Below, piece after piece: positions 2,956-11,890 of a DNA stretch of 11,890 nt. A program made the position numbers and the translations under genes. This DNA comes from Silvanigrellaceae bacterium (GTDB lineage Bacteria; Bdellovibrionota_B; Oligoflexia; Silvanigrellales; Silvanigrellaceae), in NCBI GenBank assembly GCA_049423385.1, contig JBMSQQ010000100.1:1-11890 (forward strand), read 5' to 3'. Position 1 is the first letter of the stretch; each line of letters starts with the position of its first letter. The notes under the pieces were generated by a model, which worked only from the letters and a program-made list of their open reading frames with translations, was not told where the DNA came from and searched no databases.

Positions 2956-3079
2956 GTATACACCTCGCTCTATCAAGAGATTCATCAGCCAATTGTAAAT
3001 TATTTTGGAGTTCAAGTGTTGATTCTTTGTGGTGAGTGCTCAGTCGGAGTCAAAAACCCGTCAGCAGCCTCAGCACAAT

Positions 3080-3108
3080 AAAAAAAAAGGGGACCCGAGG
3101 GGCCCCTT
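3080..3108 (-). terminator. Rho-independent terminator of the AAA+ regulator gene
   Basis: The minus strand reads AAGGGGCCCCTCGGGTCCCC followed by T9. This GC-rich hairpin plus U-tract lies ~22 nt after the stop codon at 3131. Confidence 0.88.
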
Positions 3109-3130
3109 GTCAACCTGGAGTTCCAGTCCA

Positions 3131-4522
3131 TCAATCGAGGTCCGAGTAACTTTCCCGACCGCCGTGACCAATGAAGTCAATGGAATCAAACTCTGGCGAA
3201 TCGCTGCCGAGGCCGTCGAAGATTGTGAACGCCGGGTTGCGTTTGACTCGACCCGGTTCAACCTTGACGTTTGTTGAGGCGGCTCTTTTCTTGAGCTTTT
3301 CAACAAGTGTCGTCCGGTTCATCGAAAGCAACTGTGCCGCGCGGTTCTTGTTGTGATTCGTCCGACGCAGAGCTTCTGCGATAAGACGGTTTTCAAATTC
3401 TTCCACGACACGATAGAAATCGATGCCGCTGCCGAGATCGATGTCCTTCTTGATGAACTGTTCAATCTCGGTTCCTTCCTCGAACTGCGACTGAATGTTT
3501 GAGCCGTAGTTTTGAGGGGGATTGTAAAGAGAATTGAAGCCTGCAGGATTTCGAGTTTGTGGACCGTAACCCATGGTCGGGGTTACGGGCATTTGCTGCT
3601 GGCTCGGCGCTCTGTACTGGCTCTGCTGCTGCAATGATGGATTGTTCAGTGCACGACCTTGATTTTGAAGACCGCCACCGACTCCCTGGCTTGAGTTTGA
3701 TTTCTGCGAGGGCTGCATTTGCATGCGCTCGAAGAAGGTGTCGATATTGTCCGTCACCAGATTTCTCAGGCGTGGGGGAAGATCGTTGACTTCAATGCTG
3801 CCTGAGTTTTTGAGAACAACGATGCGCTCAATGAGGTTTTCAAGCTCGCGCAGGTTGTGCGGCCAGGTGTGCTGAAGCAGCGCGCTCATTGCGTCCGGAG
3901 CAACTCCAAAGATGGATTTGCCCTTGGTTTGGTTGAACTTCTGCACAAAGTGCTCAACCAGGGGTGCGATGTCTTCACGACGTTCACGCAATGGTGGGAT
4001 GTACACTGCGCAACTTGCAAGCCGATAATACAGATCCTCGCGGAAGCTTCGTTCACGAACCGCAAGATCAATATTGACGCTTGTTGAGCAAATGATACGC
4101 ACGTTTGCTGTGCGAGGCGTTTGTGAGCCGACCGGGGTGAAGGTGCCGTCTGTCAGCACTCTCATCAATGCCATCTGCAGCTTCGCAGAAAGCTTGGACA
4201 CTTCTTCAATAAAGATGGTTCCACCGTCAGCAATCACCAGCCTGCCTTCGCGAGCCTGGTTTGCACCGGGGAATGCACCTTTCTCGTGTCCAAACAGCTC
4301 GGCCTCGAGCAAGTCATCGGCAATGGTGCCGCACTTGACGGGGACGAATGGACCAGATGCGCGAGATGATTTCTCATGGATTGCTCGAGCCACCATCTCT
4401 TTACCTGTACCGGGTTCACCGGTGATCAAGACTGGCGCCTCAGCTTCAGCTACCTTCATAATAAGGTGCTGAACATGGCGAATGACCGTGCTTGAGCCTA
4501 ATAGTGCGGACACCACGCTCAC
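3131..4522 (-). CDS. Sigma54-interaction (bEBP) family AAA+/Fis-HTH transcriptional regulator, FleQ/FlrA-like, with no receiver domain and degenerate motifs
   Basis: Walker [60 protein letters not shown] and [28 protein letters not shown] start with a GAGGAG SD. Confidence 0.92.
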
Positions 4523-4660
4523 GAGAATCTCCTCATCCCCGCTCCCTGCGGACTTAAAGGTTCCAGATCCAAAAGGGGCCTCGCCTCTTCCTTGAAGCGA
4601 TCGGCACCCTTCAGAATTTTCGATTGTTTGGATTGCTAGGTCAGTATGACAGGAGGTTGG

Positions 4661-4681
4661 CCGGATGACAAGTTCGTCCGG
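4661..4681. repeat. Short hairpin downstream of the MCP stop codon
   Basis: CCGGATGA-CAAGT-TCGTCCGG forms an 8-bp stem with one G.T pair on the + strand (a mismatch on the - strand). There is no U-tract, so function is uncertain. Confidence 0.35.
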
Positions 4682-4706
4682 TGAGGTTTACCGTCCCGTT
4701 TTCAAA

Positions 4707-7499
4707 TTAGAAAAAAACCACTTCGCCTTTCGATAAATCCTGCTCTTCATTGTTTTGCGAAGTTCTTTGGCCTGTCACCCGTGTTGACGCGGGGTTGTCT
4801 GATGGTCTCATGGCAGATTGTGCCGCTGTCAGACTTGTGACGCTCCCTCCATTCGAACCTGTCCATCCATTCGGGCTGAGGGGCTGAAGGATCGGTTCCT
4901 TGCGCCCGTTCCTGTTGAGCAGTTCTTCAACGTTGGTCTTGATCCTCTCGAGAGGTTGCATGGCGTGTTCGATTTGTTGCTTGGTGATGTCCTGAAATTG
5001 AAGGCTCAAAACGATTTGATCGATGCTCTTGGCAACGCTTTCCGAGCTCGTGACGGCATTCGATATGAGCTTTGTGAAGACTTCGGTGCTCTCCTCGGCG
5101 GTTTGTACAAGTTCACCCACGGCCATATCGACGTTCGTCTTCTTCTCGGTGTTCTTTTTGATACTGTCGACGAGATTCTTGCTCATGTCCCGGATGCTGG
5201 TGTTCACCTTTCCGACAATCTTGATGATGCTGTTGGATGCGACGCTTGTTCTGTCTGAAAGCTTGCGCACCTCTTCGGCCACAACCGAAAACCCACGCCC
5301 GTGTTCACCTGCGCGCGCAGCCTCGATTGCTGCATTGAGGGCGAGCAGATTGGTCTGATCGGAAATGTACTGGATTTCGTCGCTGATCTTGTTGATTTCT
5401 GCGGTGTTGACGAGAATCTGTTCGATGGACTTCGACGACGTTGCGTTGAGTTGCGAGTTTTCTTCGAGCATTGAGGTCATTTCTTTCAGAAGACCAAGGC
5501 TCTTTTGAATCACTTCGCTCAGACTGGTTGCGGACGCATTCGCACGGCCACCTGCAAATTGTGAAGAAATCTGGTGTGATTCGACGAGATGTTCCTGCGC
5601 CTTTTCATAGATATATCGGACCTTGTCGCTGATCTCGATGGCGCTGGCTTCCGTTTGCTTGGTGACTTTTTGGAGTAGATGCGAAATTTCTGGAACAAGG
5701 GCAATCATTTCCTGCAGGAGTCGGTGTTGTTCCGTTTTGTTTTGTTCGCTTTGATTCAACTCGGCCTGCAGTTTCGCAAATCGGCTGGAGAAGTCTTGTA
5801 CCTTGCTGGATGCGCTTTGCGCCCTTCCTTCAAGTGACCTTGCAATGGAATCGAATTCTTTTTTCTGGGCCTGCAGACGTTTGTTCATGTTCTCAGCTTC
5901 AAGCTTCCAGAAGTCGACGGATTTCTGCAGCGCAATCATTTTTGTTTCGTAATCTTGTTGCAGCGATGCAACTGCCTGGCGCTGGCTTGATTCCTCTGTT
6001 GTCTTCTGGGTCAGCTGTGTGGTTGCGGACGCCTTCGCAGCGATACGTGCTGCACTGGCCTCGGCCTGGTATTGTACAACCTGTTGTTGGAGTGTTGATA
6101 TTTGTTGCTGAAGCGAAGATGCATTCTGCACCGCCAGCTCAACCTTCTGAAGAAGCAGATTTTTTTCGTCGTCCCAGTACTTTTTGGCCTGCTCGGATTT
6201 TTCATTCAGGCTTGATTTTTCGTCATCCCAAAGCCTTCTGGCCGATTCAAAGTCCCGGCTGACCTGGTCGAAGTCACGGCGCGCATAGTCAGCAGCCTGC
6301 TGAACATCGCGTGCGGCCATTTCTCGGGTTCTTTCCATCTCGTGAGTGTAGACTTCCTTTATTCTCTCGAGTTCAGTCTTAGTCTGTTCCCTGATTTTCT
6401 CGAGCTCCCTTTGGGCACTTTCACGTCCGAATTCCGCTTCCCGCAGAGCTGCCTCAAAGGCCAGTTGTGCGTCGTTGAGAATGTTTGCCTTCATGTCCTC
6501 GGCTTCGCGGCGCCCGCGCTGATATGCTTCACCGAGTTCCCGTTTGTGCTGTGACTTCAGGCTGTCTGACTGGCGTTCGTTCTCCTGACGGACACCCGTG
6601 ATTTCTTCCCTCAATTGGGTGATTGTACTGCCAGATTCTTCCCGAATCTTGTTGATTTCTTCCAGTGCTTTTGCTTTCGCTGCTTCGGCTGATGCATTCA
6701 GCTCGGCCCGCGTTTGCTCAAGGGTTTCGAGCCGTGCAGCGATTTGTTGATCTGCATCTTTCTTGATTGATTCAATTTCAATCGTGTGATTCGCGATCAG
6801 TGTTTCGATTTGTTCGGCGAGGGGCTCGCAGGCCTGTTTTATGGCGTCCTCGCGACTGTCCCTGAGTTCCTGGAGTTCCGCGAGTGCAGCGTCCCTGATC
6901 TGGTGCGACAGGCGGAGATCTTCTTCGCATTGGATGCGGATTTCTGAAATCTCCCGCTCAGCTGAATCCCGGGCTTCCTTGATTTGGTTCTGAGCGCTTT
7001 CGCGAATTTCGTGAAGATGCAAAGCGGCGACTGTGCCCTTGGAGTTCGCCTGGGCAAGGTCCGACTCCAGCTTTTGGCATTCGCTTCTTGCGGATATGAG
7101 ATCCCGCTCAGCGCGATCGAGTTCACCCTTGAGTCGTTCTTGTTCTTCCTTGAAACGCGCAATTTCGTTGTCGACGGGAGCATTGGCAGTCCTGAGGTCT
7201 CTCAGTTCATTTTCCAATTCGGACATGCGTCTTTTATAGCGGGTTTCAATTTCCGAAACGACCTCGGCTCGCAGCGAAGCAGCCGCACTTTCAGCCAATC
7301 TGTCGAGTTCCACAGAAGCACTTTGCGCAATTGCATTACTTTTTTTCCAAAACCAGGCCGCCAGCAATGCCAATGCGGAAAGATTGACCAGAATGGCAAA
7401 ACGGAAGTCCGACAGGAAAAACGTACCCGCAATCATAAATGCCGCGAGTGCCAACAGCACAATCACAACCGAAAGTGTTCGAATCCGCAACTCTTCCAT
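4707..7499 (-). CDS. Methyl-accepting chemotaxis-like protein: 2 adjacent TM helices, very long coiled coil, MCP signalling domain and C-terminal tail
   Basis: Hairpin-tip signature [36 protein letters not shown] (~5260-5365), two N-terminal hydrophobic helices, an E/Q/A/R/K-rich stalk, [13 protein letters not shown] and terminal GEVVFF. AAAGGA SD upstream. Confidence 0.92.
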
Positions 7500-7554
7500 G
7501 ACAACGTCCTTTAAGTCCCAAGCAGAGGCAAGGGAGTGACTTTGGTTCGTCGCC

Positions 7555-7582
7555 TTATCGTCTCAATTTTTTCGCTCCGTGA
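7555..7582 (-). promoter_or_regulatory. Possible sigma28 (FliA)-type promoter for the MCP gene
   Basis: Minus strand TCACG-N15-GACGATAA versus consensus TAAAG...GCCGATAA. The -10 element matches 7/8, while the -35 element is weak and the spacing is 1 nt long. Confidence 0.3.
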
Positions 7583-7601
7583 CGGTGCATTCTGGCACCA
7601 C

Positions 7602-7654
7602 GTCAAGCCTGTGACGAATCACCGCTGCAAAATTGGACACGTCAGTAAGTCGAT
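7602..7654. promoter_or_regulatory. Two FleQ-box-like sites in the divergent MCP/gspC intergenic region
   Basis: GTCAAGCCTGTGAC (7602-7615, within the palindrome CGTCA-N6-TGACG) and GTCAGTAAGTCGAT (7641-7654) resemble the Pseudomonas FleQ consensus as I recall it (GTCaNTAAAtTGAC). Confidence 0.4.
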
Positions 7655-7719
7655 GAATTCGAGCTTGCAAACCTCATGGATATGGCATGATAAGGTAACG
7701 TAACTACAGAGGGTCAAGG

Positions 7720-8751
7720 TTGATTGTGGAACAGCGCATAAGGGCTTGGACAAAAAGCTTTTTGACGTCGTTGCAACAAAAGCTCGACGTGACAAACGCG
7801 AATATTCCCCCGTTTTCAGCTTTCGCAAAGTGGTTTGCGATAGGTGCTGCCGGAGTGGTTGCGTCGGCAACAGTGAACGTTGTCGTCGCAAAATATCTTT
7901 TGTTTCCTCAAATCAAGGCGATTAAGCGTTCAACGGACGATTCCGCTTCAGGCGGCCCGGCACTTGTCACCGTCATGGAGCGGCCCAAGGCAGACGACTT
8001 CAAAGCGATTGTTCGGCGTAACCTTTTCAATTCAGATCAGGTTGAAGAAACTGTTAAAGATGCCTCGGCTTCCAAGTCTCAATGTGCGCCGATAAAGTCT
8101 GATCTCCAACTTAAATTCACCGGGGTTATCTATGGCGGAACCAAGGAGACCAGTTTGGTCTTGTTGGAATCCACCGCAACCAAGCAAGCCGATACTTTTA
8201 TTTACAACGATGTCGTCACCGGCGAAGCCAAGATAGTTGATATTCAACGCGACAAGGTGTTTTTCGTGCGGGGCGATTCTGCTTGCCTTGAATACCTTGA
8301 ACTTCAGCAGCCCGAACCAATCAAAAAACGTGTTCCGGGAGTCGCTCGTTCCCATTCTTCCGGTGGTGCCGGTTCCGCCGGTTCAGGCAATTTCGAGTTC
8401 AGCGAATCAGGTTTCACCCGGAGCAAGGATGGCAATATTACTGCCGACAGGCGCTGTGTGGATAAAGCGTTGACCTCGGACTTTGCCAAGACCCTTCAGG
8501 ATGCCAAAGCGAGTCCCAACCTTGTCAATGGAGAAGTCAAAGGATTTGTTTTGACTCGAATTCGCCCTGACAGCGTCTATGAAAAGATGGGATTTCAGGA
8601 TGGTGATGTTGTAGAAACCATCAATGGAATTGACCTCAACGATGCAGCCCGGGCGATTCAGACGCTGAATTCTCTCAAGCAGGAAAATTCGATAGAGCTT
8701 TCCGTCAAACGCAACGGTGTCACAATGCCACTCAAGATTCAGGTGAAGTGA
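7720..8751 (+). CDS. gspC: Type II secretion system protein GspC (TM + HR + PDZ), paralogue 1
   Basis: Single TM (WFAIGAAGVVASATVNVVVA), RNLFNS, an HR-like LKFTGVIYGG...IVDIQRDKVFF region and a C-terminal PDZ (GFVLTRIRPDSVYEKMGFQDGDVVETING). It lies upstream of a secretin. Start is TTG 7720 or GTG 7726. Confidence 0.88.
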   Translation: MIVEQRIRAWTKSFLTSLQQKLDVTNANIPPFSAFAKWFAIGAAGVVASATVNVVVAKYLLFPQIKAIKRSTDDSASGGPALVTVMERPKADDFKAIVRRNLFNSDQVEETVKDASASKSQCAPIKSDLQLKFTGVIYGGTKETSLVLLESTATKQADTFIYNDVVTGEAKIVDIQRDKVFFVRGDSACLEYLELQQPEPIKKRVPGVARSHSSGGAGSAGSGNFEFSESGFTRSKDGNITADRRCVDKALTSDFAKTLQDAKASPNLVNGEVKGFVLTRIRPDSVYEKMGFQDGDVVETINGIDLNDAARAIQTLNSLKQENSIELSVKRNGVTMPLKIQVK

Positions 8752-8752
8752 C

Positions 8753-9943
8753 ATGAACAATCGTTGGTATGAGCCGAAGCGAAAAAGAAGTCCCGGTGAT
8801 GTTTGGGCAGCATTCAAAAACAGCATTGCTGGTTTGATTTCGCGAGGTGGTGGCGGCTCTCGCTCGGGTCGCGGAGGCAATTCGGAGGCGTTGGAAAGAT
8901 TCAAGACAAGACTCATCAATTGGACACTGGCTTTTGGTCATTGGTTTCAACTTTCCGTTTTGCCCATTTTGCGGCGGTTCGACTGGAGACTCATCCAGGG
9001 AATTGCTGCGGTCTTGGTGGTCAGTTTTTTTCTTGCCAATTCAATCAGCACGTTGGCGGCAAATGGAATTCTTTCCATCACCCGTTCTGCTGGCAAGCAG
9101 GCCGGAAAAAAAGGTGGCAAACCTGTGGCTGAAGGTGATGGTGAAGATTCGATGATGCTCGGAAATGTGACCTTGGGTTCGCCAGCCGTCGCAAATTCAG
9201 TGGCAATAAAGAAAGAGATTCTGCAACGAAACCTGTTCAATTCTGAAGGCAAGCTGGCGCCAGAGGCCAGCAAGGATGAACCCAAGGGCATTCGAAAAGA
9301 CCTTTCAATCGATTTTGAAAATGTTCCCTGCACCACGGCAGAACTTCCTGTGCAGATCAATGGAACCATCTTTACAGGTGATCCCAAGAAGAGTTTCGTG
9401 ATTCTGAAGGATCCCAAAATACCTGATGCCGACATTTACAAACCAGGTGATGCGGTGATTGATCATGAGGATTTTGAAATCTACAAGGTGGAGCGAGGTT
9501 CCCTGGAACTGCGCAAAGGGAACAGCAAGATTTGTGTCGCAATCAGTGGCTACAAAAAAGAGGGCACCGGAGCAGACGGTTCATCTTCTGGTGGATCTGC
9601 AAAATCGGCAGGCGAGTCAAAAGAGTTCGAGTTTGACGCTGCATTCATTTCCCAAGAGATTGGACCGGGATACGCCACCATATTGAATTGTGCGAAATTG
9701 ATCCCGGAGATTGACGCATCTGGAAAAATGCAAGGTTTTAAAATGATTTCAATTGCAACGAGCTGCTTGTTCGACCGGATTCAAATTCAAAATGGAGACG
9801 TTTTGACTGAAGTGAATGGAATCAGTCTCAAGGATGCTGGACAAGGTTTCAAATTGTATCAGTCTTTGCAGGAAGAGCGAACAACGACAATAAATATTCT
9901 TAGAAATGGTGAACCTATTACACGAATTGTGCGGGTGAAGTGA
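8753..9943 (+). CDS. gspC: Type II secretion system protein GspC (TM + HR + PDZ), paralogue 2, with extended N-terminus
   Basis: TM (LIQGIAAVLVVSFFLANSI), RNLFNS, an HR-like VQINGTIFTGDP...IYKVERG region and a PDZ (GFKMISI...IQNGDVLTEVNG). It starts 1 nt after the gspC1 stop, and its stop overlaps the gspD start (TGATG). Confidence 0.88.
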   Translation: MNNRWYEPKRKRSPGDVWAAFKNSIAGLISRGGGGSRSGRGGNSEALERFKTRLINWTLAFGHWFQLSVLPILRRFDWRLIQGIAAVLVVSFFLANSISTLAANGILSITRSAGKQAGKKGGKPVAEGDGEDSMMLGNVTLGSPAVANSVAIKKEILQRNLFNSEGKLAPEASKDEPKGIRKDLSIDFENVPCTTAELPVQINGTIFTGDPKKSFVILKDPKIPDADIYKPGDAVIDHEDFEIYKVERGSLELRKGNSKICVAISGYKKEGTGADGSSSGGSAKSAGESKEFEFDAAFISQEIGPGYATILNCAKLIPEIDASGKMQGFKMISIATSCLFDRIQIQNGDVLTEVNGISLKDAGQGFKLYQSLQEERTTTINILRNGEPITRIVRVK

Positions 9944-11890
9944 TGAAAATAAAAGGCACTCATTCTCGATTGGTTGTGCGAAATGCGGTTCCGGTGGCAT
10001 TTGCATTGTTGGCTGCAATCAGCAGCGGAAACAAAGGCCTCATCGGAACCACATCTGCTGTGGCTCAGGATGCACCACCGCCTCCGCCGCCTCCACCGCC
10101 ACCGCCACCGCCACCAGAGGACAACAATATCCCGACAAGCGATGACACATTGAATCCTGAACCAAGCGGCGATTTCGACGGCGGAGGCGGGGGCGGAGGC
10201 TCTGGCAAAGCCAAGGCTCCATCTGCGCCGAAAGCTTCCATTCCTGCCAAGAAAGTTCCCAGAGGCCAGGAGTTGGTCAGCATCGACTTTCCAGAGCCAA
10301 CGCCCATCAAGGATATCATCAAAGCGGTGAGCCAATGGACCGGCAAGAATTTTATTCTTGGCCAGGGCGTATCATCCGGTGCAAAGGTTGCGATCATTTC
10401 ACCGCAACAGGTGACCAAGGAAGAAGCTTACCAGGCATTTTTGAGTGCACTGAATGTTGCGGGCTATACAACGGTGGATACGGGCAAAGCTATCAAGATT
10501 GTTCCGACCCGTCAGGCCACGGCATCAAACATCAAGACATTTTATGGGGCAAGCTGGGCTCCGATGACGGATGAAATCATCACCCAGATTATTCCGTTGA
10601 GTTATATCGACGCCCAGACCGTTTCAAACCAGCTCCGTACGATTCTTCGTGAGTCGAATCCTGTGCCTTTCCAGACGACAAACTCGCTGATTGTCTCGGA
10701 CACAGGACACAAGATTCGCCGACTCCTCGAAATCATTCGCTTGCTGGATGTGAAAGGGAATCAACCACAAGTTGCCATACTTCCCATTCGAAACACCGAT
10801 GCCAATGACATTGGCAAGAAAATCCAGGATGTGTTTGGCTCCCGAGGGGGAGGCGGAGCACTTTATTTGCAAAAGGTAATCGTTGACGAGCGCACAAACA
10901 GCCTGATTCTCATCGGCCCACCCCGAGGATTGGATGATGTTGCCCGCTTGGTTGCACGACTCGACAAGCCTCTCGAAGATTTGGGTTCACAGGCACAAAT
11001 TCACGTTCGCCCACTGGACTATGCAGACGCCGAGAAGCTGGCTGGAACTTTGCAGTCACTGGCACAAGGATCATCGTCATTGCGCGGTCGTCGTGGCGCG
11101 AATGCGGGTGCAAATGCGGGCGGCAATAATCAGCCTCCAGGCGCAACGGCTGACATCGGTGGTGTGAAAATTACAGCCGACAAGGCGACAAACTCTCTGA
11201 TTATTCAGGGCTCCAAAGCAGTCTTCAATGAAGTTGATCAGATCATCCGGCAACTCGACAAGCGTCGCGACCAGGTCTACGTTGAGACAGATATTATCGA
11301 TGTGAACCTGGGCAACCAGATGTCTTTGTCCACAAGCTTTCTTGCGGGAGCGACTGCGCTCGGTGGCAAGGCAAATGTTCCCCTGGGTTGGAAGCCTGGA
11401 GGCATGGCTCCGTTTGCAATCACAAAGCAAAATGCCAGCACCACCGAGCAACAGGATTTGTTGAGCAAGGCAATTCCTTCTCAAGCCCTGTTGGGAGTGT
11501 TGAGCAGCAAGACGGTTGAAATAGGTGGAATTAAACTCTCTCCTGGCGCGTTTATTTTTGCGCTCAAGCAAGACAGCAACTCGAACGTTCTCCAGACTCC
11601 AAGTTTGCTTGTGGCTGACAATGAGGATTCGACTTTTGAGGCAACGGAGCGGGAAAATATCCTCATCAACCAGGAAGACCCGTTGACCAAGATCCGAACG
11701 CAAAAGATTGAAACCCTGGATGCGACCCTGAGCGTCAAAATCAAGCCGCAAATTTCCAAGGCCGATTTTGTGAGCATGGACGTGGCAATCAAGGCAGAGA
11801 GTTTTGGTCGGAGAAATGCTGAAAACCGTCCCGAGCAGACCAACAAGCGTTCGTTCAGGAAGGATAAGTTGGCCGCTTGTATTCTGCTGG
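9943..11890 (+). CDS. gspD: Type II secretion system secretin GspD, partial (runs off the window; not in the ORF track)
   Basis: Manual translation from ATG 9943 stays open to the end (649 codons). It shows a signal-like N-terminus, N0 (VSIDFPEPTPIKDIIKAVSQWTGKNFIL...EEAYQAFLSAL), three N-domain repeats (TNSLIV, DERTNSLIL, DKATNSLII), then LDKRRDQVYVETDII, NVLQTPSLLVADNE and VKIKPQI of the secretin core. Confidence 0.95.
   Translation, partial: MKIKGTHSRLVVRNAVPVAFALLAAISSGNKGLIGTTSAVAQDAPPPPPPPPPPPPPPEDNNIPTSDDTLNPEPSGDFDGGGGGGGSGKAKAPSAPKASIPAKKVPRGQELVSIDFPEPTPIKDIIKAVSQWTGKNFILGQGVSSGAKVAIISPQQVTKEEAYQAFLSALNVAGYTTVDTGKAIKIVPTRQATASNIKTFYGASWAPMTDEIITQIIPLSYIDAQTVSNQLRTILRESNPVPFQTTNSLIVSDTGHKIRRLLEIIRLLDVKGNQPQVAILPIRNTDANDIGKKIQDVFGSRGGGGALYLQKVIVDERTNSLILIGPPRGLDDVARLVARLDKPLEDLGSQAQIHVRPLDYADAEKLAGTLQSLAQGSSSLRGRRGANAGANAGGNNQPPGATADIGGVKITADKATNSLIIQGSKAVFNEVDQIIRQLDKRRDQVYVETDIIDVNLGNQMSLSTSFLAGATALGGKANVPLGWKPGGMAPFAITKQNASTTEQQDLLSKAIPSQALLGVLSSKTVEIGGIKLSPGAFIFALKQDSNSNVLQTPSLLVADNEDSTFEATERENILINQEDPLTKIRTQKIETLDATLSVKIKPQISKADFVSMDVAIKAESFGRRNAENRPEQTNKRSFRKDKLAACILL
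10075..10116 (+). repeat. (CCN)14 poly-proline-encoding tract in the gspD N-terminus
   Basis: cca ccg cct ccg ccg cct cca ccg cca ccg cca ccg cca cca gives 14 consecutive Pro codons in the gspD frame. A Gly7 run follows at 10180-10200. Confidence 0.9.

Follow-up and report, generated by a model that had tools for sequence, protein, structure and literature searches.

The stretch of DNA analysed here (the window) comprises 11,890 nucleotides and is the entire contig C100 of the 3.47-Mb genome of a Silvanigrellaceae bacterium (G000). It carries one open frame at positions 4707–7499 that encodes a receptor-like protein of 930 residues, composed of a membrane hairpin, a long stalk, a helical bundle with features of both chemoreceptors and the phosphatase CheZ, and a disordered tail (Table 1). 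An earlier interpretation made from the DNA letters (the sequence-only reading) was confined to positions 5700–7499, i.e. residues 1–600, and described a giant chemoreceptor lacking a sensor; the most conserved feature of the protein, the CheZ-like motif together with the tail, lies outside that range and was left out. A contig from another study covers window positions 3000–8000 unbroken, with 17 differing letters and no gap; because this independent contig is gap-free over the gene, the gene is not a mis-assembly. Among the matches listed, the same layout recurs in 11 other proteins of 912–952 residues. Short contigs of RNA runs X10 and X11 overlap parts of the gene; the covered share is small and does not show expression.

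Table 1. Features of the receptor-like gene and its flanks. Positions refer to the window and residue numbers (aa) to the 930-residue protein.
Feature	Positions	Strand	Basis and remarks
Whole receptor-like gene (P0001), 930 aa	4707–7499	-	Open reading frame, Pfam, AlphaFold2; hairpin, long stalk, CheZ-like/receptor bundle, tail
Membrane helix 1, ~aa 9–28	7416–7475	-	Hydropathy; AlphaFold2 helix 8–28
Membrane helix 2, ~aa 34–51	7347–7400	-	Hydropathy; AlphaFold2; follows helix 1 after a short turn, periplasmic domain absent
Stalk segment 1, aa 52–151, heptad coiled coil	7047–7346	-	Periodicity, identity, AlphaFold2
Stalk segment 2, aa 158–296, 11-residue periodicity	6612–7028	-	Periodicity, identity, AlphaFold2
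Predicted break 2, aa 297–322	6534–6611	-	AlphaFold2; low confidence, non-helical in the model
Stalk segment 3, aa 323–481, 11- and 18-residue repeats	6057–6533	-	Periodicity, indels, AlphaFold2
Predicted break 3, aa 482–511, Ala/Ser/Thr/Gln-rich	5967–6056	-	AlphaFold2, composition
Stalk segment 4, aa 512–602, heptad coiled coil running into the bundle	5694–5966	-	Periodicity, AlphaFold2
N-arm of the CheZ-like part, aa 603–649	5553–5693	-	Alignment; P603, T616 and E617 invariant
Receptor signalling hairpin, aa 660–800, turn at ~aa 730–735	5100–5522	-	Pfam, alignment, AlphaFold2, fold search
CheZ-like motif, aa 832–841	4977–5006	-	D837 aligns to CheZ D143, Q841 to Q147
Disordered tail, aa 866–930, ending in conserved GEVVFF (4710–4727)	4710–4904	-	Alignment, AlphaFold2
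Sigma-54 activator without N-terminal sensor domain, downstream and co-oriented	3131–4522	-	Pfam
Divergent intergenic region; TGACG/CGTCA repeats conserved, GACGAT(A) element ~63 bases upstream of the start	7500–7719		Comparison of loci

The protein is a member of the MCP signalling-domain superfamily. The signalling domain PF00015 matches residues 686–833 (E 1.4e-29, 103.6 bits against a curated cut-off of 34.6), and the tip motif is invariant in all 90 relatives aligned over the conserved end, which form the basis of the conservation counts given below. The best fold match of a monomer model of the C-terminal part is the T. maritima receptor 2ch7_A (Z 14.8, root-mean-square deviation 4.4, 291 residues aligned), followed by 6s1k_E (Z 11.7, deviation 1.3 over 102). 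It is not a canonical sensing receptor with a ligand-binding domain and HAMP: searches of the whole protein gave no match to HAMP, PAS, GAF or Cache in Pfam or NCBIfam, and residues 53–600 searched alone returned weak coiled-coil families only (E 0.015 or worse) and no HAMP, in agreement with the sequence-only reading. Nor does the stalk resolve into a series of HAMP domains, as the model helices are 45–160 residues long. A consensus pattern for methylation sites has no match in the 930 residues, whereas it matches in two of the genome's five other receptors.

Hydropathy places hydrophobic segments at residues ~9–25 and 34–50, and AlphaFold2 predicts helices at 8–28 and from 32 onward. The 3-residue turn between them leaves no room for a periplasmic domain, as had been claimed. 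The monomer model was built on 39 aligned sequences and its overall predicted template-modelling score is 0.28, so that only the secondary structure can be used and not the tertiary fold. The stalk was correctly described as helical and nearly free of proline (two Pro, at 108 and 226, and eight Gly in residues 56–600), with model helices at 32–105, 107–151, 158–296, 323–481 and 512–649. It is not uninterrupted, as the sequence-only reading held, because the model breaks at 152–157, 297–322 and 482–511, with local confidence (pLDDT) below 50 at 304–314 and 485–508, and the hydrophobic period shifts from 3.5 (residues 90–160) to ~3.6–3.7 (160–470) and back to 3.5 (510–615). In residues 160–470 the strongest self-similarity lag is 11 residues. 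The last break is Pro-rich in one relative (P0017) and corresponds to the Pro/Ser-rich linker region of shorter relatives. Conservation is uneven: among 10 long relatives residues 53–160 have a mean identity of 90% vs 86% for the signalling part, and residues 226–320 are the least conserved part of the protein (35%). The stalk belongs to no named family and has no match elsewhere in the genome, and a search of the ESM Atlas with it gave no usable feature match (all TM <0.25 by query).

With a rise of ~0.148 nm per helical residue, the 552-residue stalk would measure 82 nm as a straight rod, and the 682 residues from membrane to tip 101 nm; both are upper bounds. The earlier estimate of ~80 nm is thus arithmetically right for a straight rod and holds only as such a bound. 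In three other membrane receptors of the genome the last membrane helix is 135–147 residues from the tip (~20–22 nm), about one fifth of the span found here. Membrane-to-baseplate distances from tomography of arrays are 24–40 nm (PMC7184735), and the longest receptor estimated from known parts reaches 54.5 nm (PMC6628036). Given these heights, the protein cannot stand straight in an ordinary array, in line with the sequence-only reading, whose word "spacer" is a fair one for the stalk.

To place the stalk in context, relatives were collected with the C-terminal domain among proteins of 511–1628 residues, and the best 120 were retained. They form a compact group with named members in Silvanigrella, Fluviispira, Pigmentibacter and Pseudobacteriovorax, for two of which the class Oligoflexia is recorded. 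Two N-terminal membrane helices are present in 109 of these 120, and the stalks of the 109 range from 128 to 577 residues almost continuously, without discrete classes, at C-terminal domain identities of 49–95%. Stalks longer than 500 residues occur in 12 relatives, all of the same genus (530–577). In a quick tree of 73 of 76 chosen rows (three without motif patterns were skipped), used for this purpose only, the long stalks and a relative with a 294-residue stalk (P0013) form one clade of 11 rows with support 99. Indels within it measure 7, 18, 29 and 40 residues, each a sum of 7 and 11 (chance ~0.02), as would be expected if coiled-coil segments grew by entire repeats; those of 18 and 7 residues lie in segment 3, and a fifth, of 4 residues, falls in a predicted break. 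Low-complexity windows (20 residues, at least half Pro/Ser/Thr/Gly/Asn) are found in 27 of 47 mid-length, 16 of 50 short and 2 of 12 long stalks, and in 13 of 120 control segments; through linkers of this kind a conformational signal could not pass. A further 76 short relatives from other groups, the named ones mostly Nitrospirota, share the hairpin. For 59 of them two helices were called, and the membrane-to-tip distance has a median of 168 residues and lies within 162–176 in 57. As these short relatives are also sensor-less, lack of a sensor characterises the class as a whole. The change in the Oligoflexia is one of stalk length, no longer fixed at the height of an array, and a role as a ruler is unlikely. 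The orthologue comparison that the sequence-only reading called for therefore shows a length that is not conserved, and this variation, together with the low-complexity linkers, speaks against a geometry sensor and against a kinase held deep in the cytoplasm. Overall, its observations are partly confirmed and its interpretation is partly supported.

The conserved end of the protein contains the CheZ-like motif. T616, E617, D827, L833, Q834, Q836 and D837 are invariant in the 90 relatives, 89 of them keep F835 and 87 keep Q841; after a disordered linker the chain closes with G-[DE]-V-x-F-F, and [DE]-V-x-F-F is shared by most of the 90. Among the 76 short relatives, 71 have [FY]QDxxxQ, separated from the tip motif by a constant 111 residues. 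DXXXQ is the active motif of CheZ, with AXXFQ ahead of it (PMC7750401). The FQ of the latter is kept, and its first position is Ser instead of Ala in 85 of 90 relatives. CheZ is the only Pfam match of the C-arm taken alone (E 3.2e-4), and a C-arm profile sets FQD on F141-Q142-D143 of E. coli CheZ and Q841 on Q147, scoring higher on CheZ than on all 500 shuffles of it, on Tar and on five other receptors. One short relative (P0236) exceeds the PF04344 (CheZ) cut-off with 31.3 bits. In the 930-residue protein PF04344 matches residues 749–870 weakly, at 23.4 bits under a cut-off of 30.7, and the protein is therefore not filed as CheZ. The N-arm aligns without gaps, although weakly, to CheZ residues 40–66 (P603 with P49, T616 with T62). 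From T616 to D837 there are 221 residues vs 81 in CheZ, about 140 residues of receptor hairpin replacing the apical loop, the element through which E. coli CheZ reaches the array (PMC7750401). Fold searches with the C-terminal monomer listed receptors and generic helical hairpins and no CheZ; as these fill the listed rows, likeness to CheZ is neither shown nor excluded by them. A search of solved structures by sequence with residues 800–870 gave nothing meaningful. Complex prediction for the C-terminal dimer with flagellar CheY and Mg scored 0.31 (runs 0.27, 0.37 and 0.31) against a mark of 0.32, with controls not folded, and is used neither way.

The gene stands apart from other chemotaxis genes, there being no che gene on the contig, as the sequence-only reading had noted for the neighbourhood, or in 11 fetched regions of relatives. 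Elsewhere the genome encodes four CheA-like loci, CheR, two CheB-type genes, CheV, six receptors and flagellar genes, including a cluster flhB-flhA-flhF-flhG-fliA-cheY (names read by eye except cheY and flhB). Two single-domain CheY proteins are encoded, at G000 C23:28907–29299 and C9:30311–30679. In the 30 loci read, including that of this genome, no cheZ follows the flagellar cheY. In nearly all of them the next gene is a conserved one of ~160 residues without a Pfam match (L157:1015–1497; same place in L158–L186), in the position that cheZ holds in E. coli. At L166 (G009:C95) cheY continues in frame into the next gene, by fusion or assembly slip, and this locus was excluded from the CheY alignment. 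Across 41 genomes, which include kin so that counts are not independent, PF04344 was never matched above its cut-off, a model that remote CheZ forms could escape; 25 of the 26 weak matches are the gene described here. A motif scan for CheZ in this genome gave seven matches and no other clear candidate. CheC was found in none of the 41, and CheX-like genes in 28, this genome included. The gene and flagellar CheY occur together in 30 genomes and are both absent from 7, CheY alone is found in 3 (two of them 70–74% complete) and the gene alone in 1, giving concordance in 37 of 41. In five of eight fetched genomes of other families, the gene is co-oriented and two genes behind motA-motB.

The tail provides a further connection. 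CheX-like proteins of the same family (19 loci) have an acidic linker and a hydrophobic end peptide in 13 of the 15 that carry ExxN, ending in …ITFF in all ten of the genus and in …ISFF, …LILF and …LLLF in three others. To our knowledge, no such tail has been described on CheX. CheX-like ExxN proteins with this kind of tail lie at G000:C2:43220–43942 (L199) and at L200–L212. Among the 3,503 frames of at least 200 residues in the genome, three end in [VI]xFF, and two of these are the CheX-like protein and the 930-residue protein. A tail type common to two candidate CheY phosphatases of unrelated fold suggests a CheY-docking peptide; a shared scaffold or a protease signal would give the same likeness.

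Among known systems, the closest are the McpA-like receptors (P. aeruginosa McpA/CttP PA0180, V. cholerae VCA1088; PMC7184735, PMC7534058), which have in common with this protein the membrane region, the signalling domain and an end peptide whose second residue is Val or Ile: EVVFF here as compared with EVELF and DIELF (Table S12, PMC7184735). Val in that place puts EVVFF outside the CheR-tether pattern x-[HFYW]-x2-[HFYW]. The differences are that the gene is an orphan, that its membrane-to-tip distance is 682 vs 155–181 residues, and that the tail reads VFF in place of ELF; as no F7 cluster adjoins, we regard the protein as an McpA-related variant and not as a strict McpA-like member. The role of the EVELF/DIELF motif is described as unclear (PMC7184735). 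Early F7 clusters combine cheY with an mcpA-like gene but have no cheZ; stage 3 brings the loss of the mcpA-like gene (PMC7184735). P. aeruginosa McpA reportedly clusters with the F6 array and is not required for the F7 array (PMC7184735, PMC7534058), and McpA/CttP has been linked to trichloroethylene taxis (PMC7534058). In a random sample of 78 receptor loci from a generic tip-pattern scan, which is not a census of relatives, we found five beta/gamma-proteobacterial loci with sensor-less receptors of ~380–410 residues beside cheY/cheA genes (recognised by eye). In these receptors LQFQD keeps the 111-residue spacing, the tails include DIELF and DITFF, and the gene described here is in every case the best match in the genome.

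Compared with E. coli CheZ (PF04344), the protein shares FQDxxxQ in register, a helical hairpin, a flexible linker, a hydrophobic C-terminal peptide and a weak N-arm match, and it differs in the receptor tip inserted between the arms, the membrane anchor, the stalk, the Ser in AXXFQ, the missing E67 counterpart, the end peptide and the Pfam score. With Tsr, Tar and the T. maritima receptor 2CH7 it shares the PF00015 tip with its canonical motif; unlike Tsr and Tar, it has no ligand domain, HAMP or methylation consensus. ChePep is reportedly tied to CheZ localisation in Epsilonproteobacteria, and the ChePep-CheZ pair embodies a common idea, a large polar protein placing a CheZ-type phosphatase; here anchor, tether and putative enzyme would be combined in one chain. 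Among titles and opening lines of abstracts we found no account of a CheZ-like site in McpA-like receptors or of this Oligoflexia protein, which does not establish priority.

Tentatively, and at a likelihood somewhat short of even, we favour the explanation that the protein is a membrane-leashed phosphatase of phosphorylated CheY that docks through its receptor tip and is carried on a hinged coiled-coil tether; it would then be an off-switch for the swimming signal, as CheZ is, and not a sensor. Two copies would form a four-helix bundle, with a CheZ-like active site at the membrane-proximal end and the receptor tip where CheZ has its apical loop. The docking partners of the tip would be CheA/CheW or other receptors; phosphorylated CheY would be captured by the end peptide, and D837 and Q841 would speed its dephosphorylation, the substrate most likely being the flagellar CheY whose gene is not followed by cheZ. 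The stalk may serve passively, as a hinged tether by which the enzyme stays at the membrane or pole without being tied to array height, and the genus may have lengthened it by adding 11-residue coiled-coil repeats.

Several observations weigh against this explanation. Lys replaces Q841 in three of the 90 relatives, and the end peptide, which also differs from the C-terminal sequence of CheZ itself, is absent from most of the 76 short relatives that keep the motif. The PF04344 match stays below the Pfam cut-off, and the profile–profile probability against the single E. coli CheZ is 1.6%. The N-arm match amounts to 2.3 bits, with at least three of 500 shuffles scoring higher, and E67, a residue with a role in CheZ, falls on I621. 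Two of the 11 fetched loci have lost the motif: G040 (L188:4874–6214) reads FNEMTRH with tip, tail and motAB context intact, and G027 (L187:400–2196) reads FKDQNKM with a decayed tip and GDVVFF retained; judged by their sequences, both are natural negative controls. A CheX-like protein with ExxN is present, so the 930-residue protein is not needed as the sole phosphatase. As to the tether, a strongly Pro/Ser-rich window occurs in only 2 of the 12 long stalks, so in this genus flexibility depends solely on the breaks of the model, and residues 53–160 are more conserved than the signalling domain, which makes it probable that the membrane-proximal segment binds something and speaks against a purely passive stalk.

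The losses at G040 and the presence of CheX are equally what one would expect of a non-catalytic accessory receptor, in which the FQD segment is a packing or CheY-binding surface from an ancestor shared with CheZ and the protein acts as a linker, between arrays or from arrays to pole or motor, or as a sink for CheY. The invariance of the tip residues agrees with this, as does the published behaviour of McpA with respect to the F6 and F7 arrays (PMC7184735, PMC7534058), and yet the exact D/Q spacing is kept across phyla; D and Q at that spacing would be a catalytic need, and of a mere packing surface one would expect more variation. We hold this alternative to be unlikely, if clearly worth keeping in view. 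Less probable again is a true transducer that takes input from a partner protein or the membrane state through the hairpin and membrane-proximal coiled coil and passes it to CheA or to the phosphatase site. The 90% identity of residues 53–160 would be explained by it, and so would the ELDxLAESAA-type segment that is the consensus in 39 relatives and the link of McpA/CttP to trichloroethylene taxis (PMC7534058). That segment is altered in P0013, however, disordered Pro/Ser-rich linkers separate it from the bundle in many relatives, length varies fourfold, and both HAMP and the methylation consensus are missing.

We consider it improbable, more so than the transducer, that the stalk is a rigid rod of 80–100 nm, whether forming a very tall array of its own, placing a Che kinase far inside the cytoplasm or measuring the geometry of the cell. 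A helical, nearly Pro-free stalk, indels that keep register and the range of 530–577 in 12 stalks of the genus would fit such a rod, and at least three further CheA-type kinases in the genome could serve a separate array. Against it stand the three predicted breaks, lengths of 128–577 without discrete classes vs the 162–176 residues from membrane to tip in 57 of 59 short relatives, the 294-residue stalk of P0013 inside the long clade, and the absence of a second receptor of matching length among the six of the genome. A partner of matching build is likewise missing among these six for a stalk that would anchor a soluble receptor in an Aer2-type array; this candidate was dropped, also because deletion of McpA reportedly leaves F7 arrays intact (PMC7184735). 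An artefact of assembly or gene fusion that joined a coiled-coil gene to a receptor, to which a stalk without named family or match elsewhere in the genome might point, is refuted by the gap-free contig from another study and by the recurrence of the full-length layout, which 11 other proteins share and most of the genus's genomes encode; its chance is negligible.

A broader proposal is possible though doubtful: McpA-related receptors may be receptor–CheZ hybrids in which the tip serves as an array address, and in the Oligoflexia they may stand in for the missing flagellar cheZ, free of the array-height constraint, with a leash of up to ~80 nm that lets one anchored enzyme reach between array and motor and an end peptide that is a CheY-docking signal shared with CheX. 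The additions of this lineage are that the gene tracks flagellar CheY, that it sits with motAB in distant relatives and that CheX shares the tail type. The roughly fourfold lengthening of the stalk within one class provides a natural series for studying how a receptor tip can join an array to whose height the receptor does not conform. Should the motif be non-catalytic, what remains is an unusually long representative of a receptor class that is known but poorly understood.

The receptor gene shares the window with dapA, a Nudix gene, a thioredoxin-like gene, the sigma-54 activator and gspC-gspC-gspD. The activator follows the receptor gene in 20 of 20 loci of its own family and has a long Gln/Asn/Pro-rich linker ahead of its helix-turn-helix. 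Between the receptor gene and gspC, the TGACG/CGTCA inverted repeats and a GCCAGAATGCACC block are conserved across as many as 10 of the genus's loci, probably as a regulator site. A sigma-70 and terminator scan gave nothing notable above shuffles, and a sigma-28 reading of the upstream element was rejected as flagellin genes lack it. Elsewhere in the genome, an unusual che cluster at G000:C5:43267–50000 (L031) encodes a receiver-Hpt-CheA protein, CheW, a CheD-receiver-CheB fusion and a second CheB, and its cheR overlaps a long antisense frame ending in a CheW domain. At least six flagellin-like frames are present in the genome, and at G000:C122:2890–5338 (L034) a soluble receptor gene lies directly upstream of a divergent flagellin-like gene. 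On the plus strand of the window, positions 7720–11890 hold the secretin gene gspD, preceded by a tandem pair of gspC paralogues that have diverged to ~23% identity, an arrangement also seen at L195 and L197.

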